From NCBI GenBank assembly GCA_903893485.1, contig CAITMK010000014.1, forward strand, positions 66,144 through 130,143: 64,000 nucleotides of DNA, read 5' to 3'. Every line of letters begins with the position of its first letter. Position 1 is the stretch's first letter. A program made the position numbers and the translations under genes. Below, one piece after another: positions 10,374 through 59,934 of this stretch. The stretch is from Candidatus Magasanikiibacteriota bacterium. GTDB taxonomy: Bacteria > Patescibacteriota > Patescibacteriia > Magasanikbacterales > 2-02-FULL-50-9b. The notes under the pieces are model-generated. The model ran no database searches. It was not told where the DNA came from and saw nothing but the letters and a program-made list of their open reading frames with translations.

Positions 10374-10493
10374 AATAAAAAAATATGAATAATTATTTGC
10401 ACTATACCAAACGAAAAATTTCTGTCAAATAAAAAAACGCCGACAGCTCCCGTGGGGAAACTGCCGGACATGGGGCTTTGCGCGGTCGCGTGA

Positions 10494-10988
10494 TTAGCCG
10501 CCCTGCGCCTCTGCACTGCGCCGGATGAGAACCGCCTCGGTTGGAGGCATCCGCATCTCTTCGAGCAGCCGTTGCAGCGACACGTGGTTGATGCAATTCC
10601 ATGTGCTGTAATGGATCGCCACAATGCCGTAGTCGCGCACGCTCTGCACGACCTCCGCGTTTTCATCGACGACGACATTGACTTCAAGCTCCTGGCACAG
10701 CACCGCCTTCTTGGAATCGTCATCGACCACATGGACATTGATGAGCGACGCGGCGAAACCGTCGAGCCAATACTTGAGCCACTCCTGCAAGAGATCGGCG
10801 TCGAGCTGCTCGCGCCCCGGCTTGGTGACGAAAACAAGGTTAACTTGATGTGAGCGCACGGCCCACATCAGTGTCTCGATCGCTTTTGGAAAAAACGGCA
10901 CTTTGCCGAATCCCCCGCGTTCGAATGCCTCGATTTGCGCGCCGTTAAACAGCGCCAAAGTATTTGCCACACCAAATGCAATTCGCAT
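10494..10988 (-). CDS. Hypothetical protein with a degenerate HAD/5'-nucleotidase-like fold
   Basis: GGAGG SD; TTGACT-N17-TATGCT promoter. MRIAFGVANTL and K..LCQELEVNVVVDE resemble HAD motifs I, III and IV. Confidence 0.65.
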   Translation of the reverse strand: MRIAFGVANTLALFNGAQIEAFERGGFGKVPFFPKAIETLMWAVRSHQVNLVFVTKPGREQLDADLLQEWLKYWLDGFAASLINVHVVDDDSKKAVLCQELEVNVVVDENAEVVQSVRDYGIVAIHYSTWNCINHVSLQRLLEEMRMPPTEAVLIRRSAEAQGG

Positions 10989-11145
10989 GACACCCTCCAT
11001 GAGTTGTGAAACTCGAGAAAAAAGCATACCACAAAATGGCCCGAAAGTCAAGGGTAATAGCTGCTTTTTTGTTCAAAATATAAAAATAAAAACAGGCAGC
11101 AACTTTTTGCAAAGTGCTGCCCGGAGCGAGGACGACGCGATCGCG

Positions 11146-11901
11146 CTAATCGTCATACGCTACAGAAACCTTGGTTGAACTGAACTGCGCCTCGCGCTTC
11201 ATGTCCAGGATAAAGTCCACTGCCTCGCCGTTGCTGCGATACGAAAGCTCGGACTGGTTGCAATCTGCCACCGCGCGCAAACCATTTTGCACGGTCGTGC
11301 GCACCAGCAGGTTGGCATCCTTGGAATACTGGCCGTCGTTGATAACCTTCACACGGACCGTGGCGCCACGCTTGCCAAACACGCGGATCAGCGTTTCCGC
11401 GCCATCGTACGGACCTTTGGTAATTTGCCGCGGGCACATGTAATTGAGCACGTGCGGCGCATTATCCTTCGTCCATTCTGAGCGTGGAATCACCTGCGGA
11501 ATTTGCAACTCCGCAGACTTTTCGGACAAATGGAATGGCGCCCGCTCCGCATATTCCAGAAATTTCTCGAACGCGACATCTTGCGTCGCCGTGTCGGTTG
11601 GCGAGCATGCCATTTGCGCCGCCGTGCCGCCGTTGAACAGCTGCAATTCGCAGTACACGTCGTGGATCTGTTCTGCAGACGAGGCGGCCTCTGGAAGTCC
11701 AACCGCCACGGATGTCACCGCTTCAATTGCAGGCGTCGGGTCCGACGGCACAATGTTCGCGATGAGTTCCTGGCGATACACGATGCACGCAATGAGAACC
11801 GCCAACGCCGCAGAAATAAGCAGCGCGCGATCAACCTGCCGCGCGTTCCAAAACGACCGTCCGATTTCACTTACCGGAATTCCTTTTGGGAATTTTTTCA
11901 T
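11146..11901 (-). CDS. Hypothetical single-TM extracytoplasmic protein
   Basis: GGAGG SD; TTGACA-N17-TATGGT promoter; N-terminal TM helix. Confidence 0.7.
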   Translation of the reverse strand: MKKFPKGIPVSEIGRSFWNARQVDRALLISAALAVLIACIVYRQELIANIVPSDPTPAIEAVTSVAVGLPEAASSAEQIHDVYCELQLFNGGTAAQMACSPTDTATQDVAFEKFLEYAERAPFHLSEKSAELQIPQVIPRSEWTKDNAPHVLNYMCPRQITKGPYDGAETLIRVFGKRGATVRVKVINDGQYSKDANLLVRTTVQNGLRAVADCNQSELSYRSNGEAVDFILDMKREAQFSSTKVSVAYDD

Positions 11902-11929
11902 GAGTCCTCCAACTCGGTGAGGGGGAAAG

Positions 11930-12313
11930 TTACCCGGGCACCATACCGGATTTTGGGGGTTTTGTCAATGGTGAGAGGGCCAAAAACTTTTGCATTTCGA
12001 TACAGACTTTTTCGTAGAGATTTTTTTCTGAGACGCGGATTGCGCAGAGACGCTGCGTGGCCCAAAGACGGAATTGCATGCCACGAACTGCCCGGAAATT
12101 CCGGACAGTTGGATTTCGCTCTAATTCACCCTCTTCGTACAGTTTCTGAACATGTTCAGAAACAGTGCGTTTATCTTTTTGAAAAAGATCGACCATTTGC
12201 ATAAGACTCAAACACACCGTTTCGTCCTGCAAACGCACCTGAACCTGCAGCGATCCATCGGCAGCTTCGTATAAAATAATTTGGTTTTGATGTTCCCCGC
12301 CCTGAGACAACAT
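11930..12313 (-). pseudogene. Internally deleted RhuM (virulence_RhuM) family remnant
   Basis: QIILY..DG..VQVRLQDETVCLSLMQMVDLFQKDKRTVSEH..YEEGEL, RGMQFRLWATQRL and IRVSEKNLYEKV are joined directly, without the segments that normally separate them. Confidence 0.75.
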
Positions 12314-12547
12314 ATTTTTAAAATTAAAATGGCATGCAAAAACTATGCCCGAACAAAAACCGAATGTCAAGAGTGGTTATGCACTTTTTGTGCACAGAAA
12401 ATTCCGTGAAATAAAAAAACACCACACCGCTTGAGCATCCTGGGTAGGATTGCAGCAAGCAATGTGGCGTCACTCAACTCGTTGTGTGAGTGTGACCCTT
12501 TCGGATCATTGCAGAGTCGCCGTTACTGAGGCGCTACTGCGTTGGAA

Positions 12548-14464
12548 CTACTGCGGCGTGAACGTGAACTTCGCGGTGCCCTTCACGTAGCCGTTCAGGT
12601 TCTTCGGGCCAGAGATGCCGTCGAACCAGAGGCGCTGATTGGGCTGACCCGTGCCGCTGAAGCTGATCGCCGTCTGACCGCCTTGCAGGCAATCCGACGC
12701 CGTCATTTCCTTCGGCAAATCCGGCCCGCAATTGACGGTCTGCTGCAGCATCATGAGGATGCTGGTGGAAGGCGAAACCGTCTTGTCCGGCGCAATCGTG
12801 ACCGAGACCTTCACGCTTTGCGGCGCGCTGATCACGTACACTTGCTCCGGGCCAGTCGCGCCCGAAACCGTCATGCCGTCCGCGCACGTCCATTTGTCCA
12901 CCGTTTGCTTTCCGGCGGGCGCAGTGGTCGTGTCGACGTTTTTGCTAATGACGAGCGTGCCGCTGCCCGTGTAAGTAACGTAGACCACGTCGCTGCACAC
13001 ATCGCACGCGCCGCCTTCGTCGATCTGCAAGTTGCAGTTGTCGTCGAAGCCGTTGCAGACCTCCGGCGCATTCGGGTGGACGCTCGCCTTCGAGTCGTCG
13101 CAGTCCGTGTCGTCAAGGATCCACTTGCCCACGGGCGCGCATGCCAGCGTCGTCACGGCCGCGTTGCCGTAGCCGTCGCCATCGCCGTCCCAGTAAAGCG
13201 TCAACTTCACGCCCTCGTCGATCTGCTTGTCGCAGTTGTCGTCGAGGCCGTTGCAAACCTCCTTGGCGCCCGGGTAGATGGCGGCGTTGGTGTCGTCGCA
13301 GTCCGTCGAGTCGCTCACGTAGCCGGCCGGAGCCGAGCACGCTTGCTTGGTGCTGCTGAGGTTGCCGAACTTGTCGCCATCCGTGTCGGCGTAGTAGGTC
13401 GTCTGAACGCCCTCGTCGATCTGCTTGTCGCAGTTGTCGTCGAGGCCGTTGCAAACCTCCTTGGCGCCCGGGTAGATGGCGGCGTTGGTGTCGTCGCAGT
13501 CCGTCTTGCTCGTGACCTTGAAGTTCGCGTCTGCCGAGCACTGGCACGAACCGCTACCGGCGCCGTAAGTGTCACCGTCCACATCAGCGTAGAACCAGGT
13601 GCAGTTGAGCACGTTGCCTGCCGGATCGACGCTGCCATCGCAGTTGTCATCGACGCCCACCGTACTGCAATCGTCCATGATGCCCGGGTGAATCTTGGGA
13701 TCCAGGTCGTTGCAGTCATCGGAACTGGTCACGTAGTTGAGCGGCTCGGTGCAGCCCATCTTCGTGCTCGAGGAAAGGCCATGACCGTCGCCGTCGCCGT
13801 CGAAATAGAACGTCGTCTGGACGCCGTTGTCGATGACGGTGTCGCAGTCATTGTCCTTGCCGTCGCACGTTTCCTTGACCGGCAGACCCTGCGTGCACGT
13901 CGGATTGGGGTCCAGCGTGCCGTCCGGTTTGCATGCCAAAGCGTCGCAGGCGCATTCGCCGACGCCCACTTTGGTGCCCGGAAAGCTCGCCTTCGGCGGC
14001 GTCATGCACAAGAAGCGCGTGATGCCGTCGGTGGTTTCCAGCGGCACGGGAACCGAGTCCACGCACTTGCTGTTGGTCGAGGCCGCCACCGCCGCATCGC
14101 AGCCGCCGGACGAAGTGCTGAACGACGCGTCGTCGAGACCCAGCGGCGAAGCCGAGCAATCGAACGCCATCGCATCGAAGTTGTACGGGCAATCCGGCGC
14201 GAGCACGCACTTCTGGATGCTCTTGTTCCACGCCCACTTGGTGCGGTGAATCGGATCATCGGGCAGCGCGTCGCACAGCGTCTGGCTGATGGCCAGCTTG
14301 GCCGTGAGCGCGAACGATTGCGAGCCGAACGTCGCCGTCGGCGCTTGGGGCGCGGTTTTCACCGCATCGAGCACCGCAGAACCGCTCTGCGGTGCGGTCG
14401 GACCGGCACAGCCGATCAGACTTGCCAGCGCACAAAGCGCCAGCAAAGGGTTGAACTTCTTCAT
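12548..14464 (-). CDS. Cys-rich lipoprotein with MopE-related putative metal-binding repeats
   Basis: Lipobox LIGC; repeated DCDD..A.IYPGA.EVCNG.DDNCD.QIDEG and YxDxDGDGYG motifs; AGGAG SD. Confidence 0.88.
   Translation of the reverse strand: MKKFNPLLALCALASLIGCAGPTAPQSGSAVLDAVKTAPQAPTATFGSQSFALTAKLAISQTLCDALPDDPIHRTKWAWNKSIQKCVLAPDCPYNFDAMAFDCSASPLGLDDASFSTSSGGCDAAVAASTNSKCVDSVPVPLETTDGITRFLCMTPPKASFPGTKVGVGECACDALACKPDGTLDPNPTCTQGLPVKETCDGKDNDCDTVIDNGVQTTFYFDGDGDGHGLSSSTKMGCTEPLNYVTSSDDCNDLDPKIHPGIMDDCSTVGVDDNCDGSVDPAGNVLNCTWFYADVDGDTYGAGSGSCQCSADANFKVTSKTDCDDTNAAIYPGAKEVCNGLDDNCDKQIDEGVQTTYYADTDGDKFGNLSSTKQACSAPAGYVSDSTDCDDTNAAIYPGAKEVCNGLDDNCDKQIDEGVKLTLYWDGDGDGYGNAAVTTLACAPVGKWILDDTDCDDSKASVHPNAPEVCNGFDDNCNLQIDEGGACDVCSDVVYVTYTGSGTLVISKNVDTTTAPAGKQTVDKWTCADGMTVSGATGPEQVYVISAPQSVKVSVTIAPDKTVSPSTSILMMLQQTVNCGPDLPKEMTASDCLQGGQTAISFSGTGQPNQRLWFDGISGPKNLNGYVKGTAKFTFTPQ
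13209..13505. repeat. Exact 99-bp intragenic direct repeat (13209-13307 = 13407-13505)
   Basis: Both copies encode TDCDDTNAAIYPGAKEVCNGLDDNCDKQIDEGV with identical nucleotides, 198 bp apart. Confidence 0.9.
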
Positions 14465-14708
14465 CTTTGAAATCTCCTGTCAAAAAACACGATCGCTCTT
14501 TCGAGCCTCCCTCCCCACCGCGCACTCGCGCAGTAGGTAATTGTCGGCGCCGGGATAAAACGCCTGACGAATTCATCTCCTTATTGATGTCGTCAGGATT
14601 TTCATCTTTTAAAAAATAGGACCCCGGCAGCAGCAGCGTTCTTGCCACTGCTACCGGGTGAATCATTTCTCGTCTGATTCAGACGTTGCGCGGCTCGTTG
14701 GCCTGCGC

Positions 14709-16397
14709 TTACTTCTTGAACTTGGCGCACCAATCCACGACACCGCCTGGACCAAACATGTCCGGCAAAGCGATGTTGCTCTCGATGTCAAAGTCACCGG
14801 GACCCAGATCCACGAGCGGCACCAAAGCGCCGAGCGGATCTTGTACCGTCATGTACGGACCGCCAATCGCGTAGTGATCCTTGCCCTTGTTGAGCATGGA
14901 ATACGCGGTGCCGCCAAATTCGATCGGCGGAGTACCCTTGGCCGCGCCGACGTCGTACGCGTCACAAAACAGCTGCGCCGAGATCTTCACTTCGGGCGAG
15001 ATGCCCGAGATGTAGTTCGGAGCACCCGCCAGCTTGAAGTAGCCCCAGCTATTCCCGATAGTGGTCAGGATCATAGCATACGGCGCCGGCGCGTACAAGC
15101 CCATGATGTCCGAGCTTTCGCCCGTGCTCATCGTGAAAAACAGCGGCGTCCATTCACAGCCAACCTGCGAGTCGCAGGTGTCCAACGTCCAGTACTTCTG
15201 GTCGTTGCACTTGGCGGTGACCGTTGCGAAGGACCACGGAACAAACTGGCAGCCCAGCAGCGGCAGGCACGAATCGTCGGTGCACTTGTCGCCATCATCG
15301 CACGTCACGACCGTACCCTTGCAGGCAGCGGTCTTGTCGCAGATGTCGCCGTCTGTGCACAGATTGCCGTCCGTGCACGACTTGCCCACAATGGGCAGGT
15401 GCTTGAACACGCCGGTCTGCGGATCACACTTGGCGTCCTCCGTGCATTCGTTGCCGTCGTCCTCGAGCTTGGCCTCCGACAAGCACTTGCGCAGATCCGT
15501 ATCGCACGTCACCTGGATGCACAGATTGCCTTTGAATTGCGGCTGCGCGAGGCAGTCCGCATCCGTGTTGCAATCGTACGCCGGCAAACCTTCACAGGTG
15601 CCGGCCGTGCAAACGTCATTCTCCGTCGCCGGATTCCCGTCGTCGCACTTGCTGCCATCCTTCAGCTCCGCGGTCTGGCAGCCCAGCTTGGCGTCGCAGG
15701 AATCGGTCGTGCACGGGTTGCCGTCGTCGCACTTCAGGGTCGAACCTTTGCATGCGCCGACCGCACAAGTATCCGCTGTCGTGCATACGTTCCCGTCATC
15801 ACACGCCGCCGTGTTGTTCGCGTAGACGCAGCCCTTGGCTTTGTCGCACGAGTCATCGGTGCATGCGTTGCCGTCGTTGCAGGGCAACGTCGCGCCTTCG
15901 CACGAACCCGCCTTGCAGCTGTCGCCGGTGGTGCAGGCATCGCCGTCGTCGCACACGATTGCCGTGGCGATTGGTGACGCGACGCACTTGCCGAGCTTGG
16001 CATCACAGCTGCTGACGACGCACGGGTTGCTATTGTCGCAAACCACGGACACGCCCTTGCAGTAGCCAACGCCATCGCAGGCGTCGCCGGTGGTGCACGC
16101 GAGCTTGTCGTCGCACGCCGTGCCTTCCTTGGGATACGTCGCGCCTTTCGGCCGAACGCATTGCCCGGAAACGCACGTGAACTGGACATCGCATGTGGTC
16201 TTGTTCAGCGGCGCGCAATCCGGATTCGTTTCGCACAGCACGATTTGTGCCACAGAAACGTCCGGCGCGGGCGCCTGAACATCGACCTGAACGCTGCCGG
16301 CGTCCTCGGTGGGCGCGCTACCGCCCGAACCAGCTGCCTGCGTACAGCCCGCGACAATCGCGAACGGCACGCAGAGTTTGATCAAACGCGTGAACAT
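14709..16397 (-). CDS. Cys-rich lipoprotein with CDDGNxCTxDxC (Dictyostelium CTDC-like) repeats
   Basis: Lipobox VAGC; about a dozen CDDGNxCTxDxC-type units; GGAGGT SD. Confidence 0.88.
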   Translation of the reverse strand: MFTRLIKLCVPFAIVAGCTQAAGSGGSAPTEDAGSVQVDVQAPAPDVSVAQIVLCETNPDCAPLNKTTCDVQFTCVSGQCVRPKGATYPKEGTACDDKLACTTGDACDGVGYCKGVSVVCDNSNPCVVSSCDAKLGKCVASPIATAIVCDDGDACTTGDSCKAGSCEGATLPCNDGNACTDDSCDKAKGCVYANNTAACDDGNVCTTADTCAVGACKGSTLKCDDGNPCTTDSCDAKLGCQTAELKDGSKCDDGNPATENDVCTAGTCEGLPAYDCNTDADCLAQPQFKGNLCIQVTCDTDLRKCLSEAKLEDDGNECTEDAKCDPQTGVFKHLPIVGKSCTDGNLCTDGDICDKTAACKGTVVTCDDGDKCTDDSCLPLLGCQFVPWSFATVTAKCNDQKYWTLDTCDSQVGCEWTPLFFTMSTGESSDIMGLYAPAPYAMILTTIGNSWGYFKLAGAPNYISGISPEVKISAQLFCDAYDVGAAKGTPPIEFGGTAYSMLNKGKDHYAIGGPYMTVQDPLGALVPLVDLGPGDFDIESNIALPDMFGPGGVVDWCAKFKK

Positions 16398-16679
16398 GAT
16401 AAACCTCCGAAACAAGTTGAGACACTGTTGGCACACAAGAAAAAGAGCCGAGGAGCAACCGCGAGAAATAACCGTGAGGAATCTCCCCGCAGATCAACCC
16501 CCGACGCCAAAGAATTTGGAGAGGGAGCGACATATGAGAGTATCACAATCCCGCAACAATGTCAAGCCTCTAAAATAAAAAAAGACCCCCGAAACCAACC
16601 GCGCGTGATGCGTTGTTGGTCCGGGGAGTCGGTTGTGGTATTGGGCGCCGGTCGGCGATGCAATACGAGGGGGTGACCG

Positions 16680-18032
16680 CTAGAAGAAGCGATCGAGGAT
16701 GCGGTAGGCGTCGCACGTAAGTGTGCCGAACATCGCCGTCTTGCCCGTACCGGCCGGCAACGTACCGTTGCTGATCGTGTACTGGTTCGGGACGATGTAG
16801 TCGACCGTCGTCACGTTGTTCGGGCCCGTGGTAAGGACCTGAAACGCGTGATTCGTGCCGACTTTCTTGGTTGCCGACGTGCAGCTTGAGCCGATGTAGC
16901 CGGGCGAGAAGTCGCCGGCCGCCCACTTGATGTAGAAGCCCGCGCCGTTCGCGCTGCTGTTCACCTTGCTGCACCACTTGTTGCTCACGCCGACCTGGGT
17001 CATGTTGAGCGAGTCGCCGTCCAAGGACCAGATGCCGCCGTACACGAACTCGCCGTTCACGGAAACGATCTGATCATCGGCCTGCACGCACACTTTGTAC
17101 TGGCCGCCGCTTTGCGCCGGCGTTCCGGTGTGCGAACACGTGATCTTGCTGGTGTCCGTGGTGGGCGTGGTCGTGCCGGTGCACTGGTCGAGCGTCGCGG
17201 CGTTGGCGTCATCGCAGAGGAAATCCGCGCTGACGGTGGGGTCAGTGGTCGGCGCGCAGCCGATCTGAATCCCGTTTTGCCACTGGCACATGCCTTTCAG
17301 CATGGCCTGCTTCTGGACGCCTTTCGCGCTGCAGTAGTACGTCGGCGAACCGTCGCACAAGCTGGGATCCGAGCAAGCGAACACGCCATTCAGCGCGTTG
17401 CACGCGCCGGTGAGCGAGTTGCAGACCTGGCCCGCCGGGCAGCTGTTTTGCGTGCAGCTTTGCGGCGCCGTGTTGGGAGTGTTGGTGCACTTGAAGGTGT
17501 TCCAATCCCCCGTGCACGAATCAGTCGTGCTCGGATCGTTGTCGCTGCAGCTGTAGGGCTGCGACGGCTGATTCGAGTCGTACTCGCAGTACTGCCCCGC
17601 GCCCGTGCCGAAGCACATGCCCGTGAAAAAGTACTGCGTGGCCACGCCGGCATCACAATGACGCGACGTCAGCTGACAGGTGACCCCGTCGCAGACGTGC
17701 GCCACTTTGTTGGGATCCACCTGCGGCACCGAGCACACGCCCGTGTCGCAAATCTGGTTCCCGGTGCACGTGCCGCACGAGCCGCCGCAGCCATCGCTGC
17801 CGCAGTCGTGCGTGCCGCACTTGGGCGTGCACGCGTCGGCCGAAGCCGTCGCGTCCGTGCCGTTGCTGGTGTCCGAGTTGCTCGCATCCGCCGCCGCGCA
17901 GCTGGCGCAGTCCGTGGACAAACCCACAATGGGCTGGTCGGCAGGCTGGTCGACCGGGATGGCGCAGCCGGTGAAACCGGTGGCGCAGACCAACGCACAC
18001 GCGATGGCCAGAAACTTCTTGACGTTCAACAT
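16680..18032 (-). CDS. Cys-rich lipoprotein (myxobacteria-type CGxDGCGGSCGTC motif)
   Basis: Lipobox FTGC; CTPKCGTHDCGSDGCGGSCGTC; GAGGAG SD. Confidence 0.85.
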   Translation of the reverse strand: MLNVKKFLAIACALVCATGFTGCAIPVDQPADQPIVGLSTDCASCAAADASNSDTSNGTDATASADACTPKCGTHDCGSDGCGGSCGTCTGNQICDTGVCSVPQVDPNKVAHVCDGVTCQLTSRHCDAGVATQYFFTGMCFGTGAGQYCEYDSNQPSQPYSCSDNDPSTTDSCTGDWNTFKCTNTPNTAPQSCTQNSCPAGQVCNSLTGACNALNGVFACSDPSLCDGSPTYYCSAKGVQKQAMLKGMCQWQNGIQIGCAPTTDPTVSADFLCDDANAATLDQCTGTTTPTTDTSKITCSHTGTPAQSGGQYKVCVQADDQIVSVNGEFVYGGIWSLDGDSLNMTQVGVSNKWCSKVNSSANGAGFYIKWAAGDFSPGYIGSSCTSATKKVGTNHAFQVLTTGPNNVTTVDYIVPNQYTISNGTLPAGTGKTAMFGTLTCDAYRILDRFF

Positions 18033-18131
18033 GACAGACTCCTCAAGCAATAAGGCCGATTAGGCCGTGGGTGAAAAACAAACTGACACTGGAAAGGAAC
18101 GCAGAACTTCTGTGCGACGAATTACGTCGTA

Positions 18132-18363: not shown

Positions 18364-19335
18364 CTAGAAGCCGTACTGGATCCCGAACGTGACGCCGAGC
18401 ACCGGATCGAACTTGACGCCGTGGTCCAGGTTGCCCCGGAGGTCAAACGCGAAATTCGACTTGCCCATGAAAATCTCCGCACCCAGCGCCCCGCCGAACC
18501 GGTTTTCCGTCACATTGTGACTGAACCCGTTTTCAGCGATGCTGACCGCGTGGAAGCCGGCGTAGATCGCAAATTCGCGATGAAAATCGATCTTGGCCGC
18601 TGCCAGGTAATCGATCTCCGCGTGATTGTCGCCGCCGAAGGCCATGCGCACATCGAACTTGCCGTCCAGCCACTGGTGGCCGAACGATTCGATGCCGAGG
18701 CCAAAGCCACCGATGCCCGTCTGGTTCACGCCGCCGAAACCGGCGAGGATGAACTTCCACGAGGACGGCACGTTGGCGATCGGATTGACCCGGGGCGCCT
18801 GCGGCACGTACTGCTGCGGTTGCGGCTGCGGCGTGACCAGTTCCTTCCGGAGCTGCTTGAGCCCCGTCCACGCCGCCTGGGCGATGACCAAAGCCTCGCG
18901 AGCTTCGGACGCCGTCTGCAGCGTGTTGACCAGGATGCCGGCCTGCCGCGCCCGCATCAGCCGCAACGCGACGTCGTCGTCGTGATACTTGATCACTTCG
19001 ACGATGCGCGTGGCGGACACCACGCAACGGGGGTTGCGGAGCTGATCGTGAATCTTCTCGAGGGCGCTCACGCGCACGACGAGAGACGTGATCAGCTGCT
19101 GCGACAACCCGTTCGCACTCGCCTGCCCAGCCATCTGCTGGATCGTGGCGTTGCGCTCGGTCTTGGCCATGTCGGTCAACGTATCGACCGCTTTCGCCGC
19201 CTCCGCCCGCATCTCCGGAGAGAGCGGGCGATCGTCCGGCGCAGCGGGCGCCAAATTGACCTGCTGCGCAAACGCAGCCGGGGCCGAGACACAGAACATC
19301 AAGGTCGCCATCGCGACCGTCATCAACTTCTTCAT
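18364..19335 (-). CDS. Secreted protein with a helical N-terminus and a C-terminal outer-membrane beta-barrel-like domain
   Basis: Sec signal ending AFA; alternating amphipathic Gly/aromatic strands; ends GVTFGIQYGF (beta-signal-like); AGGAG SD. Confidence 0.75.
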   Translation of the reverse strand: MKKLMTVAMATLMFCVSAPAAFAQQVNLAPAAPDDRPLSPEMRAEAAKAVDTLTDMAKTERNATIQQMAGQASANGLSQQLITSLVVRVSALEKIHDQLRNPRCVVSATRIVEVIKYHDDDVALRLMRARQAGILVNTLQTASEAREALVIAQAAWTGLKQLRKELVTPQPQPQQYVPQAPRVNPIANVPSSWKFILAGFGGVNQTGIGGFGLGIESFGHQWLDGKFDVRMAFGGDNHAEIDYLAAAKIDFHREFAIYAGFHAVSIAENGFSHNVTENRFGGALGAEIFMGKSNFAFDLRGNLDHGVKFDPVLGVTFGIQYGF

Positions 19336-19588: not shown

Positions 19589-20275
19589 CTACGGCTGCCG
19601 CAGGAAGCCGTTCGCGCGCGCCTCGCCGTCGGCCCGCGCGCTCGCATACGCCTGATTCAGCGTGCGCAGCTCGCGGCACTGTGCCGGCGTCGGGTGCGGC
19701 TCGCCGTAGATCTGGCAGTCGCCGTCGCTCCGGGCAGCGCCGCGCTTGTCTTCGGACTTCGTGTGCGCTTTCGGGGCGGCGGGCTCGATCTTGATGACCT
19801 CGCCGTCGTCCTTCTTGTCGCCCGCGTCGTCGGACTTCACGTGTGCCTTGGCCTTGGCTTTCGCCTTGGCCGCCCACTCGCCCTTCCAGTTCTCCGTCGC
19901 GCCCTTGGTGGCGTCGTGGAGGCCCTTGGCGCCCAGGCAGTCCTGGTACGCAGCGCCGCACTTCGCGTTGGCCGCGTTGGCGAGTTCTTGCGCGCGCGCC
20001 TGGCAGATCTTGCCGCTCTCGCCGCAGTTGATGAACTCATGCGCCAAGATGTGCGCGACGAGATTCTTGCAGCTCGTCTGCACCTCCTCGCACGTCGAGG
20101 CCGTCGTCGGCGCCGGCACCGCAACCACCGCCGGCTTCGGCGGATCGTCGGTCGGCACTTTCACCGGGTCGACCTGCTTGGGGCAGTCCTTGCCGCAGGT
20201 CACCGTGGTGGTGCCGCACGCAGCAGCCGTCATCGCGACCAAAACCAGAACGCCAGAAACAAAAAGCTTCTTCAT
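19589..20275 (-). CDS. Hypothetical lipoprotein
   Basis: Lipobox AAAC; paired Cys; GGAGG SD; TTGACT-N17-TATTGT promoter. Confidence 0.8.
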   Translation of the reverse strand: MKKLFVSGVLVLVAMTAAACGTTTVTCGKDCPKQVDPVKVPTDDPPKPAVVAVPAPTTASTCEEVQTSCKNLVAHILAHEFINCGESGKICQARAQELANAANAKCGAAYQDCLGAKGLHDATKGATENWKGEWAAKAKAKAKAHVKSDDAGDKKDDGEVIKIEPAAPKAHTKSEDKRGAARSDGDCQIYGEPHPTPAQCRELRTLNQAYASARADGEARANGFLRQP

Positions 20276-21148: not shown

Positions 21149-21149
21149 A

Positions 21150-22750: not shown

Positions 22751-22751
22751 A

Positions 22752-28554: not shown

Positions 28555-29175
28555 CTATAGTGAGGAGCGCCGCCAAAACTGCACCTGACCGCGCTCCTGT
28601 AAGAACCGCATGAATTCATCGCTGTGCGGCTCGTTCGACAACTCGTAACCCAGATCGCCAAAAATCGATGGTCCGCTGGGGCAAACGAGAGGCGCCGGTG
28701 CGTAACCTTTGACGAGGCTCGTGAACGTGTTGAATTCGATTGTTACCAGCCCGTCGCAAACAGCAAATTTCACATTACCGCTCAATCCGCCGGACTCATC
28801 CTTTTGAATTCTGCCCACTTCAAGTTCGGGCGGCCGCAGAGCTACAATCACGTGACGCATGTCACCTGCAGTCATACTAGCGATGACGACTTTCCCGCCG
28901 ACCGACGCGGACCGCAGCGCACGCTGCAGCACGTTGAAGCCGACCACCTCGTTCACGCGCGCCAGTTCAGCGCTTCCCCCGAGTTGCTGAACGGTCCGTA
29001 CGGCCTCTCGCGCAGATCGACGTTCGCGCAGTGTACGCCACAACTTACTTATACCAAGTGGATTTAGAAAATAGTTCTGGAAAAACATCGAGATCGGCGT
29101 CGTGAATTCGATAAACCAAAATCGCAACGCTAGCCGCTGCTCATCACCAAGGATCGTTTTAAGCCATCGCCACAT
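28555..29175 (-). CDS. Hypothetical protein (SD-led unit)
   Basis: AAGGAG SD; TTGACA-N17-TATGTT promoter; long 3' hairpin at 28466-28515. Confidence 0.7.
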   Translation of the reverse strand: MWRWLKTILGDEQRLALRFWFIEFTTPISMFFQNYFLNPLGISKLWRTLRERRSAREAVRTVQQLGGSAELARVNEVVGFNVLQRALRSASVGGKVVIASMTAGDMRHVIVALRPPELEVGRIQKDESGGLSGNVKFAVCDGLVTIEFNTFTSLVKGYAPAPLVCPSGPSIFGDLGYELSNEPHSDEFMRFLQERGQVQFWRRSSL

Positions 29176-29319: not shown

Positions 29320-29661
29320 ATGGCAAAGAAGAAAGCGCAGGGTCGCAAGCCCTGCATTCCGGTCAACGTCAGCTTTGACCGCAAACTGTCGCTGAAAGAA
29401 TAGGCCGCCATTTTCAGCCTCCCGCACACGCCAACGACCGAAAAGGTGGTGCGTGCGCTGTTCGTTGCCAATGGCGACGGCTACGCGCGCGAAATTCTGG
29501 ACGGCACGTGGAGTCGTGCGATGCAGCTCAACCGGCTGCTCATCAAGCACGGCTTGCCGTACCGCGTGCGGAGCTACCCGCTTTCGGAACTGGAGGCTCG
29601 CAAGCGCTACGACGGCTACGCGATTTCACAAGAAGGGCTCACGCTCGGCATTGTCATGTGA
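29320..29661 (+). pseudogene. SD-led ORF interrupted by one in-frame TAG (29401-29403)
   Basis: AGGAG-N6-ATG, MAKKKAQGRKPCIPVNVSFDRKLSLKE*AAIFSLPH..., continuing in frame into the 29446-29661 ORF. Confidence 0.7.
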
Positions 29662-29689: not shown

Positions 29690-30319
29690 ATGCCGAAACT
29701 CGAAAAAATTCTCGGGGCGGCGGTGCCGCTCCTGACACTCGGCGCTTCGGTGCCACTGCTCATTGGCGGATGGCAACATCCGATCGAAATCAATTTGGCC
29801 GCGTACACGCTGTGGATCATGCTGGCAGCAATGCTCGCATACTCTATGTGGGCGCAGCACCAACCAACGTGGCGCATGATGCTTGGCTTTTTGCTCGGCA
29901 ACGTGAGCATGGTGACGCTTGGGCTGGTACGCGGCGGATACACATTCAACCTCGGCACATCTGAACTCATCGTGCTGTTCGGCATGGTACTCACCGTGGT
30001 CGTGTGGCTCACGGCTAGGCAAATCACCAGCTCAAGCAACCCGCGCATCCTGCTTTTGGGCGGAGTCACGATCGACGTGATCACCTACTACCCGCTGTTC
30101 AAGCAGTACCTCATGCAACACGAACCACCAACGGCGTGGATGAAGCTCGGCTGGTGCATGCAACTCACGGGCATAACGATTAACCTGTTCGTCGTGGAAC
30201 GCATTGTGCAAAAAATTCGGTATCACGAAAAGTCTTTGCCGAAGATTCTCGAAGAGTCGGCATTTTCGCTCGAGTGCTGCATTTTCATCTCGATGCTTCT
30301 GTGGCTGATCAACACGTAA
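29690..30319 (+). CDS. Hypothetical multi-TM membrane protein (SD-led)
   Basis: GGAGG SD before MPKLEK; about 7 hydrophobic helices. Confidence 0.75.
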   Translation: MPKLEKILGAAVPLLTLGASVPLLIGGWQHPIEINLAAYTLWIMLAAMLAYSMWAQHQPTWRMMLGFLLGNVSMVTLGLVRGGYTFNLGTSELIVLFGMVLTVVVWLTARQITSSSNPRILLLGGVTIDVITYYPLFKQYLMQHEPPTAWMKLGWCMQLTGITINLFVVERIVQKIRYHEKSLPKILEESAFSLECCIFISMLLWLINT

Positions 30320-30463: not shown

Positions 30464-30865
30464 CTACGAAACCAATGCGCACGGATGCAGCGTGAACCAA
30501 AACGTCAAATCCTTTTTCAGGTTCGCCACGAACTCCACGATGAATGCTTCCAGAAAAGCGTAATTCCGCGGCGTCCGCTCCTTTGGCAACGCCTGCTCAA
30601 ACCGCTCGCTCAGCATGCAAATCAGCACGAACTTTGCCGTGTCCATGTTCGGCTGTACGAGCACCAACGGGTAGTTGAAGCCCTGTTCAACGTAACTCAT
30701 CAGGGTTTCCGTGTCCAAATCCTTCGGGCGCTCGATAGCATATACCTCCATCTGCCGTTCAAGCGCCTGGGGCACGGACGAGTACGCATGTGCCAGCGTC
30801 AACACTTCCTTCAAATAACCTTCCAGTTCCGCTTCGATCACTCGAGCCGTATCTGCGTGTGACAT
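30464..30865 (-). CDS. Hypothetical protein (SD-led unit)
   Basis: GAGGT SD; TTGCTA-N17-TAAGAT promoter; 3' hairpin at 30392-30448. Confidence 0.65.
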   Translation of the reverse strand: MSHADTARVIEAELEGYLKEVLTLAHAYSSVPQALERQMEVYAIERPKDLDTETLMSYVEQGFNYPLVLVQPNMDTAKFVLICMLSERFEQALPKERTPRNYAFLEAFIVEFVANLKKDLTFWFTLHPCALVS

Positions 30866-31014: not shown

Positions 31015-31860
31015 TCACTTTCCAAGCCACCGAATCCAATCGCGCAGCTTGCCTGTTGGTTTCACGCTCATAAGTCGCGTGCCATTGTTCCACGGCCATG
31101 CATGCACCACGCATGCCAGCGCTTCGCGATGAAAAGCACCCGGCCCACGCCCCAGTTGATGCTCTGCCAGCCCACTGACCGTGAGCAAATGCGCAACCGC
31201 CGTGTTTGGAACCACGCGAAGCGCCCGATCAAGCAGTTCGCGCGACGCATAATAGCAACCCATGGCATCTTGCATGCCCACGAGTCGCTCTTCATACATC
31301 GTTGGCTGAAGCCGCTGCCGCCGCCATTCGCGCACCAAGTTTTTGTGGTGAAGCAGATACGGTTCGGCATGCGGACCTAGGCGTGTTTGCCACAGCGGCT
31401 CCGCCATGATTTCGGCATGCGTCAGCGGCGTACCACTAAACGCCAAATCGCTGCGCCGCCACACTGCCTGCAAATCCAACACGGTCACCTTGCCGTAAAA
31501 GCCGTTTTCCAAGCGATGAAAATCCGCCGCCGAAATACGACCTCCGTACGTACGACCATGTGTGCACGTGCGATCGTGTGAATACGTCTCCAAAATTCCG
31601 GCGTACGTTGCAAGCGGGCCCACGCCATGCGCCACAATTACAATGGGGTTGCCCGCACGACTCAGTCCAACGTACTCCGCGGACAGCGTCGTGCAAAATC
31701 GTTCCCAAAAATCGTGACCCAGATTTGTGTGCAGCCGTGCGTCGATCACATCTGACACCGTAGCAATATGTCCTTGAGGTCCGCCACGCGTTTCTGCCTC
31801 CAAAAAAACTCGATCAAACTTTTCGCCATCGAAATGGAGTCCAAATTGATTTGCGCTCAT
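31015..31860 (-). CDS. Hypothetical protein (SD-led unit)
   Basis: GGAGG SD; TAGACA-N17-TAGGCT promoter; 3' hairpin at 30949-30983. Confidence 0.75.
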   Translation of the reverse strand: MSANQFGLHFDGEKFDRVFLEAETRGGPQGHIATVSDVIDARLHTNLGHDFWERFCTTLSAEYVGLSRAGNPIVIVAHGVGPLATYAGILETYSHDRTCTHGRTYGGRISAADFHRLENGFYGKVTVLDLQAVWRRSDLAFSGTPLTHAEIMAEPLWQTRLGPHAEPYLLHHKNLVREWRRQRLQPTMYEERLVGMQDAMGCYYASRELLDRALRVVPNTAVAHLLTVSGLAEHQLGRGPGAFHREALACVVHAWPWNNGTRLMSVKPTGKLRDWIRWLGK

Positions 31861-39570: not shown

Positions 39571-40119
39571 ATGCGTATTGCTCGAAAGCGCTTCAAACCA
39601 GAAGTACAAAAAATCAAAATTCGTTACAACGAAGGTATTCGCGTACCCATGGTTCGCGTTATCGATGAAGCCGGCGCTCACGTGGGCACCATGACCACCC
39701 AGGAAGCAACTGCTCTGGCTTTGGAACGCGGCCTTGATTTAATCGAAATCAACCCAAACGCCGATCCACCGGTGGTAAAAATCACGGAATACGGCCAGTT
39801 TAAATATCAGAAAGACAAAGAAGAACGCCTCCAGAAAAAGAAACAGAAAGAATCGGAAGTCAAAGGCGTGCGTCTTTCCCTGCGTATCGGCGAGCATGAT
39901 CGCGAAATGCGCATGAATCAAGCTAAAAAGTTCCTTGAAGATGGCAATAAGGTTAAGGTGGAAATCATTCTCCGCGGCCGTGAACGCCAGTTTGTAACCG
40001 GCGCGTTTGCCGTCATGGACAAGTTTATTAACGAAATGCGCGCCGCAATGCCGGTACGTGTGGAACAGCCGGTCAGCAAGCAGGAAAACAAGGTTACGGT
40101 ACTGCTGGTTAAGGAATAA
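39571..40119 (+). CDS. infC: Translation initiation factor IF-3
   Basis: NEGIR..VRVID, LDLIEINPNADPPVVKI, LRGRE. Start set at the ATG after TTGCAA-N17-TATACT. Confidence 0.96.
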   Translation: MRIARKRFKPEVQKIKIRYNEGIRVPMVRVIDEAGAHVGTMTTQEATALALERGLDLIEINPNADPPVVKITEYGQFKYQKDKEERLQKKKQKESEVKGVRLSLRIGEHDREMRMNQAKKFLEDGNKVKVEIILRGRERQFVTGAFAVMDKFINEMRAAMPVRVEQPVSKQENKVTVLLVKE

Positions 40120-40192
40120 GCAGTAATACACAGGCCGCCCTTGACGAAAATACGCATAAACTGTTATAATCTGCACACTTAAATTTGGCACT

Positions 40193-40387
40193 ATGGGGAA
40201 GCTCAAAACGAAAAAATCTATTGCGAAACGCTTCCGCGTGACACGCAACGACAAAGTGATTCACCGTGCAAGCGGCCAGGGTCATTTCAATGGTCGCGAA
40301 TCTGGCAATACCACCCGTGAAAAACGCACGGACAAGGTTTTAGCTAAGACGCACACAAAATTAATCATCCGTAGCATCAGTAAATAA
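40193..40387 (+). CDS. rpmI: 50S ribosomal protein L35
   Basis: KLKTKKSIAKRFRVT; synteny with infC and rplT. Confidence 0.95.
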   Translation: MGKLKTKKSIAKRFRVTRNDKVIHRASGQGHFNGRESGNTTREKRTDKVLAKTHTKLIIRSISK

Positions 40388-40388
40388 T

Positions 40389-40805
40389 ATGGCACGCGTA
40401 AAACGAGGTACAATTCGCGCAAAAAAGCGCTCAGCCATTTTGAAAAACACCAAGGGTTACATGTGGGGTCGCAAAAACCGCATCCGCATGGCTAAAGAAG
40501 CTATCTTGCACTCAGGTGTGCAGTCTTTTCAGGCTCGCCGCAAGAAAAAGGGTGTTGCACGCGCAGCATGGCACATCCAAATCAATGCAGCCGTACGTCC
40601 ATTTGGCACCAACTATTCCAAGTTCATGGATGCTTTGAAAAAGGCAAACATCACCTTGAACCGCAAAATGCTTGCTGAATTGGGTATTAACCACCCAGAT
40701 GTATTTGCAGCAATCGTAAAGAAAGTTGTGGTTCCAACAGAACCAAAAGCCCCTAAAGCTGCAAAAGCTCCAAAGGCAAAAAAAGTAGCGAAAGCAAAAG
40801 CATAA
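40389..40805 (+). CDS. rplT: 50S ribosomal protein L20 with a Lys/Ala-rich tail
   Basis: MARVKRG, QINAAVR, LNRKMLAEL. Confidence 0.96.
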   Translation: MARVKRGTIRAKKRSAILKNTKGYMWGRKNRIRMAKEAILHSGVQSFQARRKKKGVARAAWHIQINAAVRPFGTNYSKFMDALKKANITLNRKMLAELGINHPDVFAAIVKKVVVPTEPKAPKAAKAPKAKKVAKAKA

Positions 40806-41221: not shown

Positions 41222-41821
41222 TTATTCGGGGATGTTTTCCAAGTGCCAGTCGATGCTGCCATCATCAACTTCTTCCCCACCCGGAATCAGCATGGTGTAA
41301 TGGTAGTCCTGAGTGCTGACGAATCCATGCTCAACCACATTGTCAGGAATGAAAATCGGAGTGAGGCGAACGCGCACATCACACTGATCCGCATTGCAAA
41401 CCACAAGCAGCAGCGCGGCGTGCGTGCGATCGTTGCGATTGATCCATCGTTGCACTGGGGTGAGCACGTCACCATCCTGGTACAACCACGTCCTGCCGTC
41501 CTCGCTGGTTGTGCCGTGAGCAAACAAAACACCGATGCCCGAACGCTGCGTGCGTTCACCCCGAAGACGGACGTACTCCAAAAACTTTGGATCGATCTTC
41601 CGAACAAACATCTGGTGAATGTCTCGATCCAAGTAATCTTCAACGCTCTGTGATCGCTCAGTCGGCGAAGACTCTTTGCCAAGCATTTTCTGCACCGCTC
41701 CCACAAACTGCAGATCCTGCGGGCGCGGTGGCGTCGCAATTTCAAGCCGGCGCTCTGCTTCAATATCGCTGCTCACATGAACAAAAAACCCGGGGAATTC
41801 CTTACTTTCAACAACACGCAT
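41222..41821 (-). CDS. Hypothetical protein (SD-led unit)
   Basis: AGGAGG SD; TTGACA-N17-TAGATT promoter; 3' hairpin at 41143-41193. Confidence 0.72.
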   Translation of the reverse strand: MRVVESKEFPGFFVHVSSDIEAERRLEIATPPRPQDLQFVGAVQKMLGKESSPTERSQSVEDYLDRDIHQMFVRKIDPKFLEYVRLRGERTQRSGIGVLFAHGTTSEDGRTWLYQDGDVLTPVQRWINRNDRTHAALLLVVCNADQCDVRVRLTPIFIPDNVVEHGFVSTQDYHYTMLIPGGEEVDDGSIDWHLENIPE

Positions 41822-42011: not shown

Positions 42012-42785
42012 TCACGGGTAGGCTTGGACAAATTCAGCGATCAATTGGTCCAAGTGCGGAAGTAGTACGGCTCGCACCTCCTGATCCGCGCATTCTTCGT
42101 ACTTCGCAATCTGCACAGCAAGTTCAGTGAGCTTTTCGAGTCGCTGCACTTCAAAGGTCTGATCAATCAGCGCCTCTTCGCGCGCAGCGATTGCCGCCTG
42201 ACGTGCCACGACGATCTCCAGCGACGCAGACAGCGTCGACTTGCGATCATCGAACGCACGCTGCAGCTCGGCCGTGAGCTCCTCTGGCAAGCCAGAGATG
42301 TTGCGCTCATGCGACGCGGACAGCTCAATCAGCTGAGTCTGCAGACGGGCCTGCTTCGACTGCAGAGCCGCTGACTCATTCCGGAGGCTCGCGAGCTCGA
42401 CACTGCGCCGCTTTGCACGCCCTGCGGTGTCGCTAAGATGCGCGACCACCTCCTTGTGTGCAGGCGCGCGGCGCATGAAGTACAACCGAGCACGCGAAAG
42501 GCTGTCTGTCGCCCACGCGACCAGCCCCAAAGTAAGCGCCACCAAAGTAAAGGCGCTAAACAGACCGCCAATCCAGTGGGTCTCGGTCCCGTTGCACACG
42601 TCATTCCCTGAATGATAGTTCTGATAGCAATCAGGCACCTCATCCAGAAACATGTGCTTGATCACGTCCCACGCGTATGGTTGGATCCACACCATGGCCA
42701 AAAGAGCTGCGATAGCCCCAGTGACGATCCACACACCTTTGAGTGGGAACCAAACAACTGCTTTCTCGCGAATTTTAAGGTACAT
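42012..42785 (-). CDS. Two-TM plus coiled-coil hypothetical protein (SD-led unit)
   Basis: AGGAG SD; TTGACA-N17-TATATT promoter; 3' hairpin at 41936-41997. Confidence 0.75.
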   Translation of the reverse strand: MYLKIREKAVVWFPLKGVWIVTGAIAALLAMVWIQPYAWDVIKHMFLDEVPDCYQNYHSGNDVCNGTETHWIGGLFSAFTLVALTLGLVAWATDSLSRARLYFMRRAPAHKEVVAHLSDTAGRAKRRSVELASLRNESAALQSKQARLQTQLIELSASHERNISGLPEELTAELQRAFDDRKSTLSASLEIVVARQAAIAAREEALIDQTFEVQRLEKLTELAVQIAKYEECADQEVRAVLLPHLDQLIAEFVQAYP

Positions 42786-53510: not shown

Positions 53511-54119
53511 TTAGGGGCGAAGACAAACGCCCAAGATCGCGAACGCTGCCGCCGAAACGATCATGGTCGCCACGTTAACCCGGTCGAGCCACGGCCCATT
53601 TTGGTACCAAGGCAACTTCAGGAGCCGCAAGGGATGCGAGCCCAGAAAGATTACGAGCCACAGTCCGCTGCCCATGAGCACCAAATCGTGCACGGACCGG
53701 CCAGACGTTGCCGACGAGTAGAAAAGCAGCACCACCGTGATCACCGCACCCATGAACAGTGCGTGCATCCAGCCCGACAACGTTACGCGATGGTGCATGA
53801 CGTGCGCTTCGAACGCAGGGCTTTTGGCATACCACAACTGCGCAATCAAGCCGAGTGTGATTCCTGCCGTACCTGCGCGCCAGATGTTGTAGTTACTCCA
53901 CTGAGCATGGTACGTCCCGATGATGTACCCCATGAGCGGCGAGATGACGAGTAGGTCGCCCCACATTGCCAAATGTGCGTTCCACGGAATGCTGCGCGCC
54001 ACGTGATGGCGGTCCAACATTTGCCGCCACGAGAATGTACCTTCGATGTAAGAAAACAACCCGCCCCACATACACACCACAAAGAAACCGACTGCCCACA
54101 AAATTCCAACACTGTTCAT
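53511..54119 (-). CDS. Hypothetical multi-TM protein (SD-led unit)
   Basis: GGAGG SD; TTGACA upstream; 3' hairpin at 53452-53500. Confidence 0.72.
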   Translation of the reverse strand: MNSVGILWAVGFFVVCMWGGLFSYIEGTFSWRQMLDRHHVARSIPWNAHLAMWGDLLVISPLMGYIIGTYHAQWSNYNIWRAGTAGITLGLIAQLWYAKSPAFEAHVMHHRVTLSGWMHALFMGAVITVVLLFYSSATSGRSVHDLVLMGSGLWLVIFLGSHPLRLLKLPWYQNGPWLDRVNVATMIVSAAAFAILGVCLRP

Positions 54120-56790: not shown

Positions 56791-56795
56791 ATAAA

Positions 56796-58629: not shown

Positions 58630-58698
58630 CAGAAAAGCGAAATTCTGCTACACTAGGCATCAATACGGTCGACTCTCAATCAAAACAAGCTTTCCAAT

Positions 58699-58902
58699 AT
58701 GACAGGTTCTATCAAGTCCCTTCCACCAGGCAAAGAGTTCGGCTTCATCAGCCAATCAAACGGCGACAAAGACGTGTTTTTCCACACATCTGAAGTTGTT
58801 GCTCCACTCGCATTCGCAGACCTCAAAATCGGCGATACAGTGACTTTTGAGCTTCAGGATTCTCCAAAGGGTCCTAAGGCAACTCAGGTTGCTCGCGCAT
58901 AA
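58699..58902 (+). CDS. Cold shock protein
   Basis: FGFI and DVFFH RNP motifs; KGPKATQV. Confidence 0.93.
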   Translation: MTGSIKSLPPGKEFGFISQSNGDKDVFFHTSEVVAPLAFADLKIGDTVTFELQDSPKGPKATQVARA

Positions 58903-59037
58903 TTGCACGACATCCCAAACAGCCGCCCTTCGGGGCGGTTTTTTGTTTGCATCAAAATTGACTAATGGCAGTAAATAGCGTAAAAAAGGTAAAGGGCAGC
59001 CGCCCACATATCCGAAAACCCAGCAAGGAGATCTTTG

Positions 59038-59814
59038 ATGAAATCGCACAATATTCTGCCCACGGGCTATCAGAGCCTACGGGAATTTTGGCGCGCGAGC
59101 GCCCTTCATACGGCAACGTGTGGTGCTCTTACCGATTTCGAAATCTGGAGCGTCAAGCGCCATCTGGACAACCACCAGACGTGCGTGGACTTTCAATGCC
59201 CGGTCATGAAAATCGATAAGTGGCTACTGCTACTTGATGCGTTCATTTTTGTTGGCTGCTCCGCGATTGGATTCGTAATCATTTCAGGATGGCTCCTGAT
59301 CGGATTGCCGATTGCAGGGATCAGCTTTTACGTCAGGGGGAAACTGATTCAAAGCCAACTGGCATACCATCGTAGTCAAGAAGCAGCACCACCCGGCAAC
59401 ATGGATACGATCCGCGCGCGAGGATTCGTGCAATGGGATATCCAGCAGATGCAAACCCACTGGGCATCAGTGCAAGCGTGGCACCGCGATGTGGAGCAAG
59501 ACCCGCTCAATCAGGCCAAGCTGCTAACGCATTCTGAGGACTTTACGGGGGTCGTAGAGGCCTATTTGAACCATCAGCGCGGTAAAGCCATTGCAGCCGA
59601 CTTCAACAGCCTGTACGAGCTGCACCTGGCTACCGTGAATTTGTACCAAAAATACACCACGGCCGCAGATCAGGCCGTGGCGAGCCGACAAAAGCTGGGC
59701 GAATTGGCTCCCGGTATTCATCTGAAAATGGTTGCGGTGCAAGTGGGCGCCATGCGTACAACACTGCGTCAGATGCGAGCAATCGCAAATCTGCCAATCA
59801 ACACATCCTTGTAA
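59038..59814 (+). CDS. Two-TM plus helical hypothetical protein (SD-led unit)
   Basis: AAGGAG SD; TTGACT upstream; 3' hairpin at 59819-59864. Confidence 0.7.
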   Translation: MKSHNILPTGYQSLREFWRASALHTATCGALTDFEIWSVKRHLDNHQTCVDFQCPVMKIDKWLLLLDAFIFVGCSAIGFVIISGWLLIGLPIAGISFYVRGKLIQSQLAYHRSQEAAPPGNMDTIRARGFVQWDIQQMQTHWASVQAWHRDVEQDPLNQAKLLTHSEDFTGVVEAYLNHQRGKAIAADFNSLYELHLATVNLYQKYTTAADQAVASRQKLGELAPGIHLKMVAVQVGAMRTTLRQMRAIANLPINTSL

Positions 59815-59934
59815 CAATATTCTCGGGGTTTGGTCAAAAGCCGAGCTCCGAGGATTTATTTTTTTAAGCCACAAAGACCTCTTGCGTAATTAGAAATAAT
59901 TTGATACAATTTGGCGGTAAAATTGAATAGGCGT

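Follow-up and report, generated by a model that had tools for sequence, protein, structure and literature searches.

Shine–Dalgarno-led single-gene units in a Patescibacteria genome whose backbone lacks Shine–Dalgarno sequences, and their possible translation by host ribosomes

In a 64,000-nucleotide stretch of a Candidatus Magasanikiibacteriota genome (assembly GCA_903893485.1, contig CAITMK010000014.1, positions 66,144 to 130,143; the window), genes preceded by a strong Shine–Dalgarno (SD) sequence are interspersed among genes that have none, which raises the question of whose ribosomes are to read them. Among the 53 genes called between positions 10431 and 59864, 16 belong to a class with a high GC content at third codon positions (GC3), and 37 to the backbone. 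As claimed in the original prediction, an SD lies 4–9 nt upstream of the ATG in all 16 genes. No 5-mer SD was found at the backbone genes of this region (0/37), nearby alternative starts included. The 16 genes are also GC-richer, as stated there, with GC3 of 0.57–0.90 in the 15 intact ones vs. ~0.40 in the backbone. Two further claims stood in part. Most of the units were said to have their own promoters, but under a strict definition (TTGAC-N17–19-TAnnnT within 300 nt) this applies to 7/16, and to most only with looser matches. Terminator-like 3′ hairpins (≤ −14 kcal/mol before a T-run) were found in 11/16, but they look like ordinary intrinsic terminators: no repeat family common to the unit flanks is present among the 20 largest direct-repeat families listed for positions 10000–32000. 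Judging from sequence, we lean slightly towards the view that the units are cassettes that would be translated by host ribosomes after the delivery of mRNA or DNA.

The split extends over the whole genome, a metagenome-assembled sequence of 948 kb in 15 contigs that is 98.85% complete and 0.01% contaminated. Genes were called with a two-class codon model, in which the class was assigned by codon usage only and starts were picked without SD information. The codon score was bimodal genome-wide, and SD motifs were concentrated in the high-GC3 class, which comprises 135 of the 914 called genes in 93 clusters (65 of them single genes) spread over all 15 contigs. In front of 63/135 class genes vs. 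6/779 backbone genes there is a 5-mer SD, or 75/135 vs. 12/779 when starts within 60 nt are allowed, a contrast that is diluted, not created, by the few miscalls in the class (e.g., rpmG and short shadow open reading frames, ORFs). Such a motif occurs by chance at 9/515 internal ATGs of class genes and 34/4657 of backbone genes. A strict sigma70-type promoter was found upstream of 68/135 class genes, with leaders of mostly 25–60 nt, and upstream of 91/779 backbone genes, where the leader length has its mode at 4–10 nt, as in leaderless transcripts. Hairpins of ≤ −16 kcal/mol follow 96/135 class genes vs. 102/779 backbone genes. A chimeric assembly, considered as a source of this pattern, was rejected, as contigs of the sequencing runs X1 and X2 span backbone–unit junctions (10287–13238, 10016–11469 and 18300–22254); both runs come from one study, and X1 is possibly the source of the assembly.

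The two classes differ also in the signals around their starts. Backbone genes lie close together (median gap of 12 nt), their −10 boxes peak 6–9 nt before the ATG, and position −1 is T in 76% of their starts, whereas in the class it is C in 45%; the T at −1 is a possible signature of SD-independent initiation. Backbone promoters of the leaderless type rarely contain TTGAC (11/107), and their −10 boxes match TATAAT/TATACT more closely than unit −10 boxes do. The codons of the class are not the optimal codons of the genome itself, a possibility that was ruled out: at fourfold sites the class favors G (0.41) and C (0.32), opposite to the preference of ribosomal protein genes (T 0.45, G 0.07). 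The genome encodes a tRNA-Ile with the anticodon TAT (contig C12, 77044–77117), which is rare in bacteria, and ATA accounts for 8% of backbone Ile codons and for 2% of those in the class.

This genome keeps CCUCCU at the 3′ end of its 16S rRNA, i.e., its anti-SD is intact. Hence the window gives no support to the claim that the units are kept for another cell's ribosomes, and this genome alone cannot decide whose ribosomes read them; the support for the host reading comes from relatives, where units of this architecture, and members of one of the window's gene families, occur without an anti-SD. Signals that the owner's machinery would be unable to read are present in that anti-SD-less clade, whereas the present genome keeps its anti-SD. 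Among 41 genomes centered on relative G178, the 16S end was recovered in 23, and the anti-SD was missing in 23/23. Strict promoter–RGGAG–ATG units numbered 307 and occurred in 39/41 of these genomes, with 5 in the reversed control and 18 in a control with RGCGG in place of RGGAG; in the 23 genomes verified to be anti-SD-less, the counts were 154 vs. 7. Misbinning is unlikely, because the units share contigs with anti-SD-less 16S ends and SD-less rpsU genes: contig C3 of G518 carries both together with 13 of the 14 G518 units, and contig C6 of G178 carries both together with 2 units. The GC3 of sampled units in this clade exceeded that of SD-less neighbors in 26/30 cases, and in AT-rich genomes the unit leaders are AT-rich, with AGGAGG still kept. 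These data show that genes fall into two classes and that the split persists in genomes without an anti-SD.

Across the phylum, the strict unit pattern was found in 195/251 genomes (23 units in the present one), with 0–2 matches per genome in the reversed control. Anti-SD calls rest on 16S ends that were read, as a screen for CACCTCC misses TACCTCC and other variants: many of the 25 ends read had TACCTCC or another variant, and 6 were clearly without an anti-SD. The available text of PMC9297842 reports an anti-SD in only 48% of Parcubacteria. Variant 16S tails (CACTTCT, CGCCTCC, ACCGCC, CACCCCT, ATCTCC) were also seen in several Patescibacteria families (L240–L259, L194–L206). No strict units were found in sampled genomes of families f13, f14 and f86, though several of them keep the anti-SD. 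Thus, the presence of units is decoupled from the anti-SD state, and it may follow the type of host. In 80-kb samples, the split was clear in the single-contig relative G023, weak in G008 and prophage-driven in G030, and it was not seen in the samples of the other 7/10 genomes or of 4/5 further genomes; such samples under-detect it, since G025 has 22 strict units genome-wide. The G030 sample includes a prophage-like block (C1:150001–170000, L082) with SD-led genes of GC3 0.8–0.87.

The gene family that connects the window to anti-SD-less genomes is that of 29690..30319 (plus strand), an SD-led gene for a membrane protein of 209 aa (GC3 0.73). The protein has no Pfam match, and none of its 17 homologs carries a functional name. 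Its structure model (pLDDT 91.6) aligned with 7zk1 over 205 residues (Z 14.6, rmsd 3.6; the next unrelated structure had Z 7.9, and the Foldseek E-value was only 0.04), which predicts a seven-helix PQ-loop/SWEET fold, as in cystinosin, the KDEL receptor and SWEET. When 185,579 genomes were scanned by alignment, 15 loci were obtained, 12 labeled as Patescibacteria and 3 labeled only as "bacterium"; searches of viral contigs and plasmids gave no homologs. The family was thus found only in Patescibacteria-labeled or unlabeled genomes. Of the 34 distinct homologs, a 5-mer SD is present in 19, a promoter match in 21 and a terminator in 20. The neighbors differ at each locus. Ratios of dN/dS of 0.06–0.25 in unsaturated pairs show long residence of the family under purifying selection, and GC3 is above that of the resident genome in 27/30 members. 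In two clades of the family that are now leaderless, the GC3 excess has dropped from 0.14 to 0.04 (17 vs. 9 genes, p = 0.005, with kin not independent). A perfect SD (AGGAGG or GGAGGT) precedes the homologs in G529, G530, G531 and G533, all without an anti-SD and with homologs 37–52% identical to each other. Five genomes with SD-led homologs were tested; the 16S end was available in 4/5, and the anti-SD was missing in 4/4.

This persistence of SD-led units, the 29690 family included, in genomes without an anti-SD speaks for translation by host ribosomes. So does rpsU as an internal control, with an extended SD-like block in 21/21 readable loci of the anti-SD-bearing order and no SD in 5/5 anti-SD-less genomes, and so do the drop of the GC3 excess in the leaderless clades of the 29690 family, class codons at odds with those of ribosomal protein genes, a promoter and SD conserved before differing ORFs in one slot (see below), and CsrA, a reader of GGA, being found in 0/5 genomes. 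A further point in favor is cargo that needs machinery not found in these bacteria. The SD-led gene 18364..19335 (minus strand; 323 aa, GC3 0.86) encodes a protein with a signal peptide, a helical stalk and a C-terminus predicted to be an outer-membrane beta-barrel: the amphipathic barrel pattern and the C-terminal aromatic beta-signal are retained in its single full-length homolog (28% identity), and an Atlas model of low confidence (pLDDT 0.55) matched PF13505-type clusters with TM scores of 0.70–0.78. BamA was found in 0/41 related genomes. Similarly, an SD-led unit of the anti-SD-less G508 (L272:1588–2931) has a signal peptide and the C-terminal sorting domain (PF18962) of the type IX secretion system (T9SS). 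A second class protein of the present genome ends in a beta-signal-like sequence (L022:9210–10853, contig C8).

Under the host-ribosome reading, the bacterium would translate the backbone itself through SD-independent initiation (coupled or leaderless, with T at −1), and the units would form a dispersed payload for host manipulation, made up of predicted solute facilitators, enzymes of nucleotide and amino-acid metabolism, and envelope proteins. Their SD motifs and GC-shifted codons would suit a foreign ribosome, and the 29690 facilitator, placed in the host membrane, would leak solutes. Delivery as mRNA would be consistent with the strong 3′ hairpins and a message left untranslated at home, and delivery as DNA with universal promoters and terminators. 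A candidate channel is a TraG/VirB4-like ATPase; a P-loop TraG-type ATPase (PF19044) is present in 5/5 genomes, and the role of the essential type IV secretion system is stated as unknown in the available text of PMC11665869. SD-free self-translation, followed by the loss of the anti-SD, would keep the payload silent in the parasite. In its widest form, this reading implies a second genome for export, with dozens to more than 100 cassettes sent as mRNA or DNA into a prokaryotic host, for and against which we see the sequence evidence as evenly balanced.

The remaining cargo is diverse. Pfam matches were obtained for 17/100 further class genes scanned (23 others were outside the scan), among them purA, PNP, NUDIX, GNAT, HrcA and Cys-rich repeats, and for 7/38 units of the anti-SD-less clade: aspartokinase, PRPP synthetase, thymidine kinase, EamA, NYN, a LAGLIDADG domain and the T9SS sorting domain. 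The class is present in a genome of the same genus with mostly different cargo: of the 307 genes sampled there, most of the SD-led ones have no match here. This cargo includes what we take to be pyrimidine-synthesis-like genes. Homologs of other unit families at 24–35% identity keep the unit architecture, an AT-rich genome included. In one slot shared by G495 (contig C38) and G525 (contig C35; pair L328/L276), the terminator, promoter, leader and SD are conserved and the ORF behind the ATG differs, which at the sequence level reads as cargo exchange at the start codon; this is one example from a single genus of the anti-SD-less clade, and the 16S ends of both genomes were unrecovered. Thus, the suggestion that the units are mobile cassettes gains from the different neighbors in each genome and from cargo that changes behind a conserved promoter–SD, but not from a shared recombination site, none being seen in 10000–32000. 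The suggestion of recent acquisition is not supported for the genes tested: 18364 and 14709 have no close homolog beyond this population, 29690 has homologs only in Patescibacteria, and PHROG matches were absent (0/65). A phage or plasmid origin of the units was likewise rejected, with IMG/VR giving no match for the two families tested and plasmids none for one family. No homolog of the C-terminal domain of 14709 was found among the candidates scored. Distant homologs of 53511 occur in 2/200 class genomes, both with a strict promoter and raised GC3, and a genome-collection scan with this gene gave no match.

Several observations weigh against translation by a host. Since the anti-SD is kept here, the bacterium's own ribosomes could read the SD motifs of the units, and some SD-led genes look self-serving, namely rpsU and an HU-like gene in the anti-SD-bearing G083. 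The composition of the 29690 family is mostly endogenous, because the GC3 of its members varies with that of the genome in which they reside (rho 0.67, slope 0.77, n = 30). Anti-SD-less genomes G384, G396, G440, G489, G503 and G528 contain 0–1 strict units, and in G440 AGGAGG is not in genome-wide excess (55 vs. 52). No signal for delivery was found: PF03135 was seen in 0/5 genomes, which have only the P-loop TraG-type ATPase (5/5). The barrel was checked by structure for one gene only, 18364, and its single-sequence fold was uninformative (pLDDT 39). The predicted lipoproteins need no host, because Lgt and LspA are present in the genome; they were accordingly rejected as a proof of host processing. 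The internal control given by rpsU, which has no SD in anti-SD-less genomes (0/5), contrasts two different clades. The lack of a repeat family shared by the unit flanks, noted above, points the same way, as does the fact that no strong motif common to unit leaders was found. A boxA-like GTTCTTT, located 6–22 nt past the −10 box in 10 of 11 matching leaders, was set aside as too weak a signal, occurring in 11/139 unit leaders of relatives (1.7 expected) and in 1/27 here.

A second route on the bacterium's own ribosomes, in which leadered accessory genes use SD–anti-SD pairing (perhaps gated by bS21, the product of rpsU) and the core is leaderless or coupled, was initially favored because the anti-SD is kept here and rpsU of this order bears an extended SD. 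The anti-SD is intact also in all sampled genomes of the same taxonomic class with a 16S end, and the promoters of the high-GC3 class are of plain sigma70 type. An extended SD-like block of the GAGGTGA type, often within a short hairpin, precedes rpsU in 21/21 readable loci of the anti-SD-bearing order (L135–L156; one unparsed locus and one false match left out). In the available portions of PMC9976891 and PMC7797042, such an extended SD on rpsU is a hallmark of autoregulation in Flavobacterium, and the analogy suggests a similar autoregulation in this order. However, rpsU of the present genome (C9:34697–34921, minus strand) is down to GGTGA, and the SD motifs of the class are mostly 4–6 nt long, whereas the response to bS21 loss is limited to strong or extended SDs in what is available of PMC9976891. 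The 307 units of the clade without an anti-SD, the GC3 shift and the barrel without BamA are also left unexplained, and we consider this route somewhat unlikely. The units might instead be moron-like genes in a continual influx through transformation, with SD-using cells (for the most part other Patescibacteria) as donors and with SD and GC as leftovers that have not yet decayed. The high turnover of cargo within the genus, the different neighbors of each homolog and the broken unit at 29320 would fit this, as would the origin in Patescibacteria of 109/131 transfers into Patescibacteria (available part of PMC12455944), and donors may be unsampled. However, no close donors were found for the three window genes searched (18364, 14709 and 29690), and the PHROG, IMG/VR and plasmid searches described above were empty. 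AGGAGG kept in the AT-rich leaders of AT-rich genomes, a promoter–SD that outlasted its cargo in one slot, and purifying selection also speak against mere leftovers, an explanation that we find unlikely.

Persistence without an anti-SD would be explained without any delivery if the reader of AGGAGG inside the small cell were not the 16S tail but a protein (ribosomal or regulatory) or an adaptor RNA with a CCUCC sequence, and the fixed spacing of 4–9 nt would suit a factor that blocks or recruits starts. CsrA, a reader of GGA, was ruled out, being found in 0/5 genomes, and we know of no adaptor RNA of this kind. Moreover, the extensions of the motif (AAGGAGGTGA) match the canonical 16S tail, and rpsU lacks the motif in these anti-SD-less genomes; such a reader appears very improbable. 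An artefact of assembly or binning might be suspected in a metagenome-assembled genome of 15 contigs, but single genes are interleaved on all of these contigs, contamination is 0.01%, contigs of X1 and X2 bridge the junctions, and the same split occurs in the single-contig G023, which leaves this explanation a practically negligible probability.

The other units of the window are on the minus strand unless stated. The gene 10494..10988 (164 aa, GC3 0.70), with a promoter 34 nt upstream and a terminator of −22 kcal/mol, gave no sequence match in Pfam, NCBIfam, PHROG or PDB. It is followed by 11146..11901 (251 aa with a hydrophobic N-terminal segment, GC3 0.67; promoter 38 nt upstream, terminator) and by four genes for predicted lipoproteins: 12548..14464 (638 aa, Cys-rich PF11617 repeats, GC3 0.85; without a strict promoter of its own), 14709..16397 (562 aa, PF00526 repeats, GC3 0.79; promoter 139 nt upstream), the Cys-rich 16680..18032 (450 aa, GC3 0.88; terminator of −30 kcal/mol) and 19589..20275 (228 aa, GC3 0.90; promoter 185 nt upstream). 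Genes 12548–20275 may be partially co-transcribed, as may 29320 and 29690. The gene 29320..29661 (plus strand) is broken, with 27 codons before an in-frame TAG and the frame then open to 29661. Next to these lie 28555..29175 (206 aa, GC3 0.61; promoter 26 nt upstream, terminator of −25), 30464..30865 (133 aa, GC3 0.71; terminator of −32) and 31015..31860 (281 aa, GC3 0.57; variant promoter, terminator of −20). Farther on are 41222..41821, which follows a tRNA-Asp (199 aa, GC3 0.58; promoter 48 nt upstream, terminator of −27), 42012..42785 (257 aa with membrane segments and a coiled coil, GC3 0.66; promoter 115 nt upstream), the membrane protein gene 53511..54119 (202 aa, GC3 0.73; terminator of −29) and, on the plus strand, 59038..59814, which precedes a tRNA-Ser (258 aa, GC3 0.61; terminator of −24). 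The backbone operon infC-rpmI-rplT (39571..40805, plus strand) has no SD, and a −10 box precedes the infC start. The window also contains a backbone-type gene without an SD for a predicted surface protein of 1942 aa (44840–50668), and, between two units, an ORF of backbone composition (11930–12313) that we take to resemble the start of a RhuM-like protein, perhaps a fragment. Elsewhere in the genome, a XerD-like class protein (L009:3255–4295, contig C2) scored far below the cut-off and presumably lacks the catalytic motifs, making it a possible decoy; one PF00589 recombinase is present. A protein consisting only of a CHC2 zinc finger was noted at L005:16259–16717.

In Agrobacterium, T-DNA consists of bacterial genes with another cell's expression signals, and it redirects host metabolism to feed the donor. 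The units would resemble it in that a bacterial genome keeps genes under the expression signals of another cell, but their proposed recipient is a prokaryote, they lie singly at scattered sites of the chromosome, and no border repeat was seen in 10000–32000. Like phage morons, they are autonomous promoter–SD–ORF–terminator units (promoter in 68/135, terminator in 96/135) of mostly unassigned function, and their cargo genes of nucleotide metabolism (purA, PNP, thymidine kinase, PRPP synthetase) recall phage takeover of a host. Unlike morons, they lie outside prophages among housekeeping neighbors, have no PHROG matches, are GC-richer than the backbone, and belong to families that are old and, where tested, restricted to Patescibacteria. 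Integron cassettes are promoterless, flanked by attC sites and arranged in a tandem array; the units share with them the single-gene format and the variation between relatives, but they have their own promoters, are dispersed singly in both orientations and show no common attC-like repeat in 10000–32000. In Bacteroidota-type sequestration of the anti-SD, a pocket of bS21, bS18 and bS6 holds the 16S tail. The SD-blind ribosomes of Bacteroidota, as far as the available text of PMC7797042 and PMC9976891 goes, offer a parallel in the SD-less core, the retained anti-SD and the extended rpsU SD (here in relatives), but the SD there is on one or a few ribosomal protein genes, whereas here it marks a class of ~15% of genes and persists without an anti-SD. 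The anti-SD loss described for Parcubacteria agrees with the anti-SD-less 16S ends found here; the available text of PMC9297842 assumes that SD helices do not form and does not mention SD-led genes. A literature search that covered few subscription papers found no description of such SD-led classes of genes, or of translation on the host side, for Patescibacteria.

The bacterium is likely host-dependent, and how Patescibacteria extract nutrients from their hosts is stated as open in the available text of PMC11665869. If the host-ribosome reading is true, an SD would mark host-directed effectors in any such genome, and the sequence rule of promoter, SD, terminator and raised GC3 selects candidate host-directed genes. 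The units would then be an equivalent, between bacteria, of T-DNA or phage takeover, would explain part of the large unknown-gene content of Patescibacteria, and may help in predicting hosts. They would also offer a rationale for the loss of the anti-SD in a clade. Should the delivery model prove wrong, a new mechanism would still be needed for SD motifs that are retained in the absence of an anti-SD.

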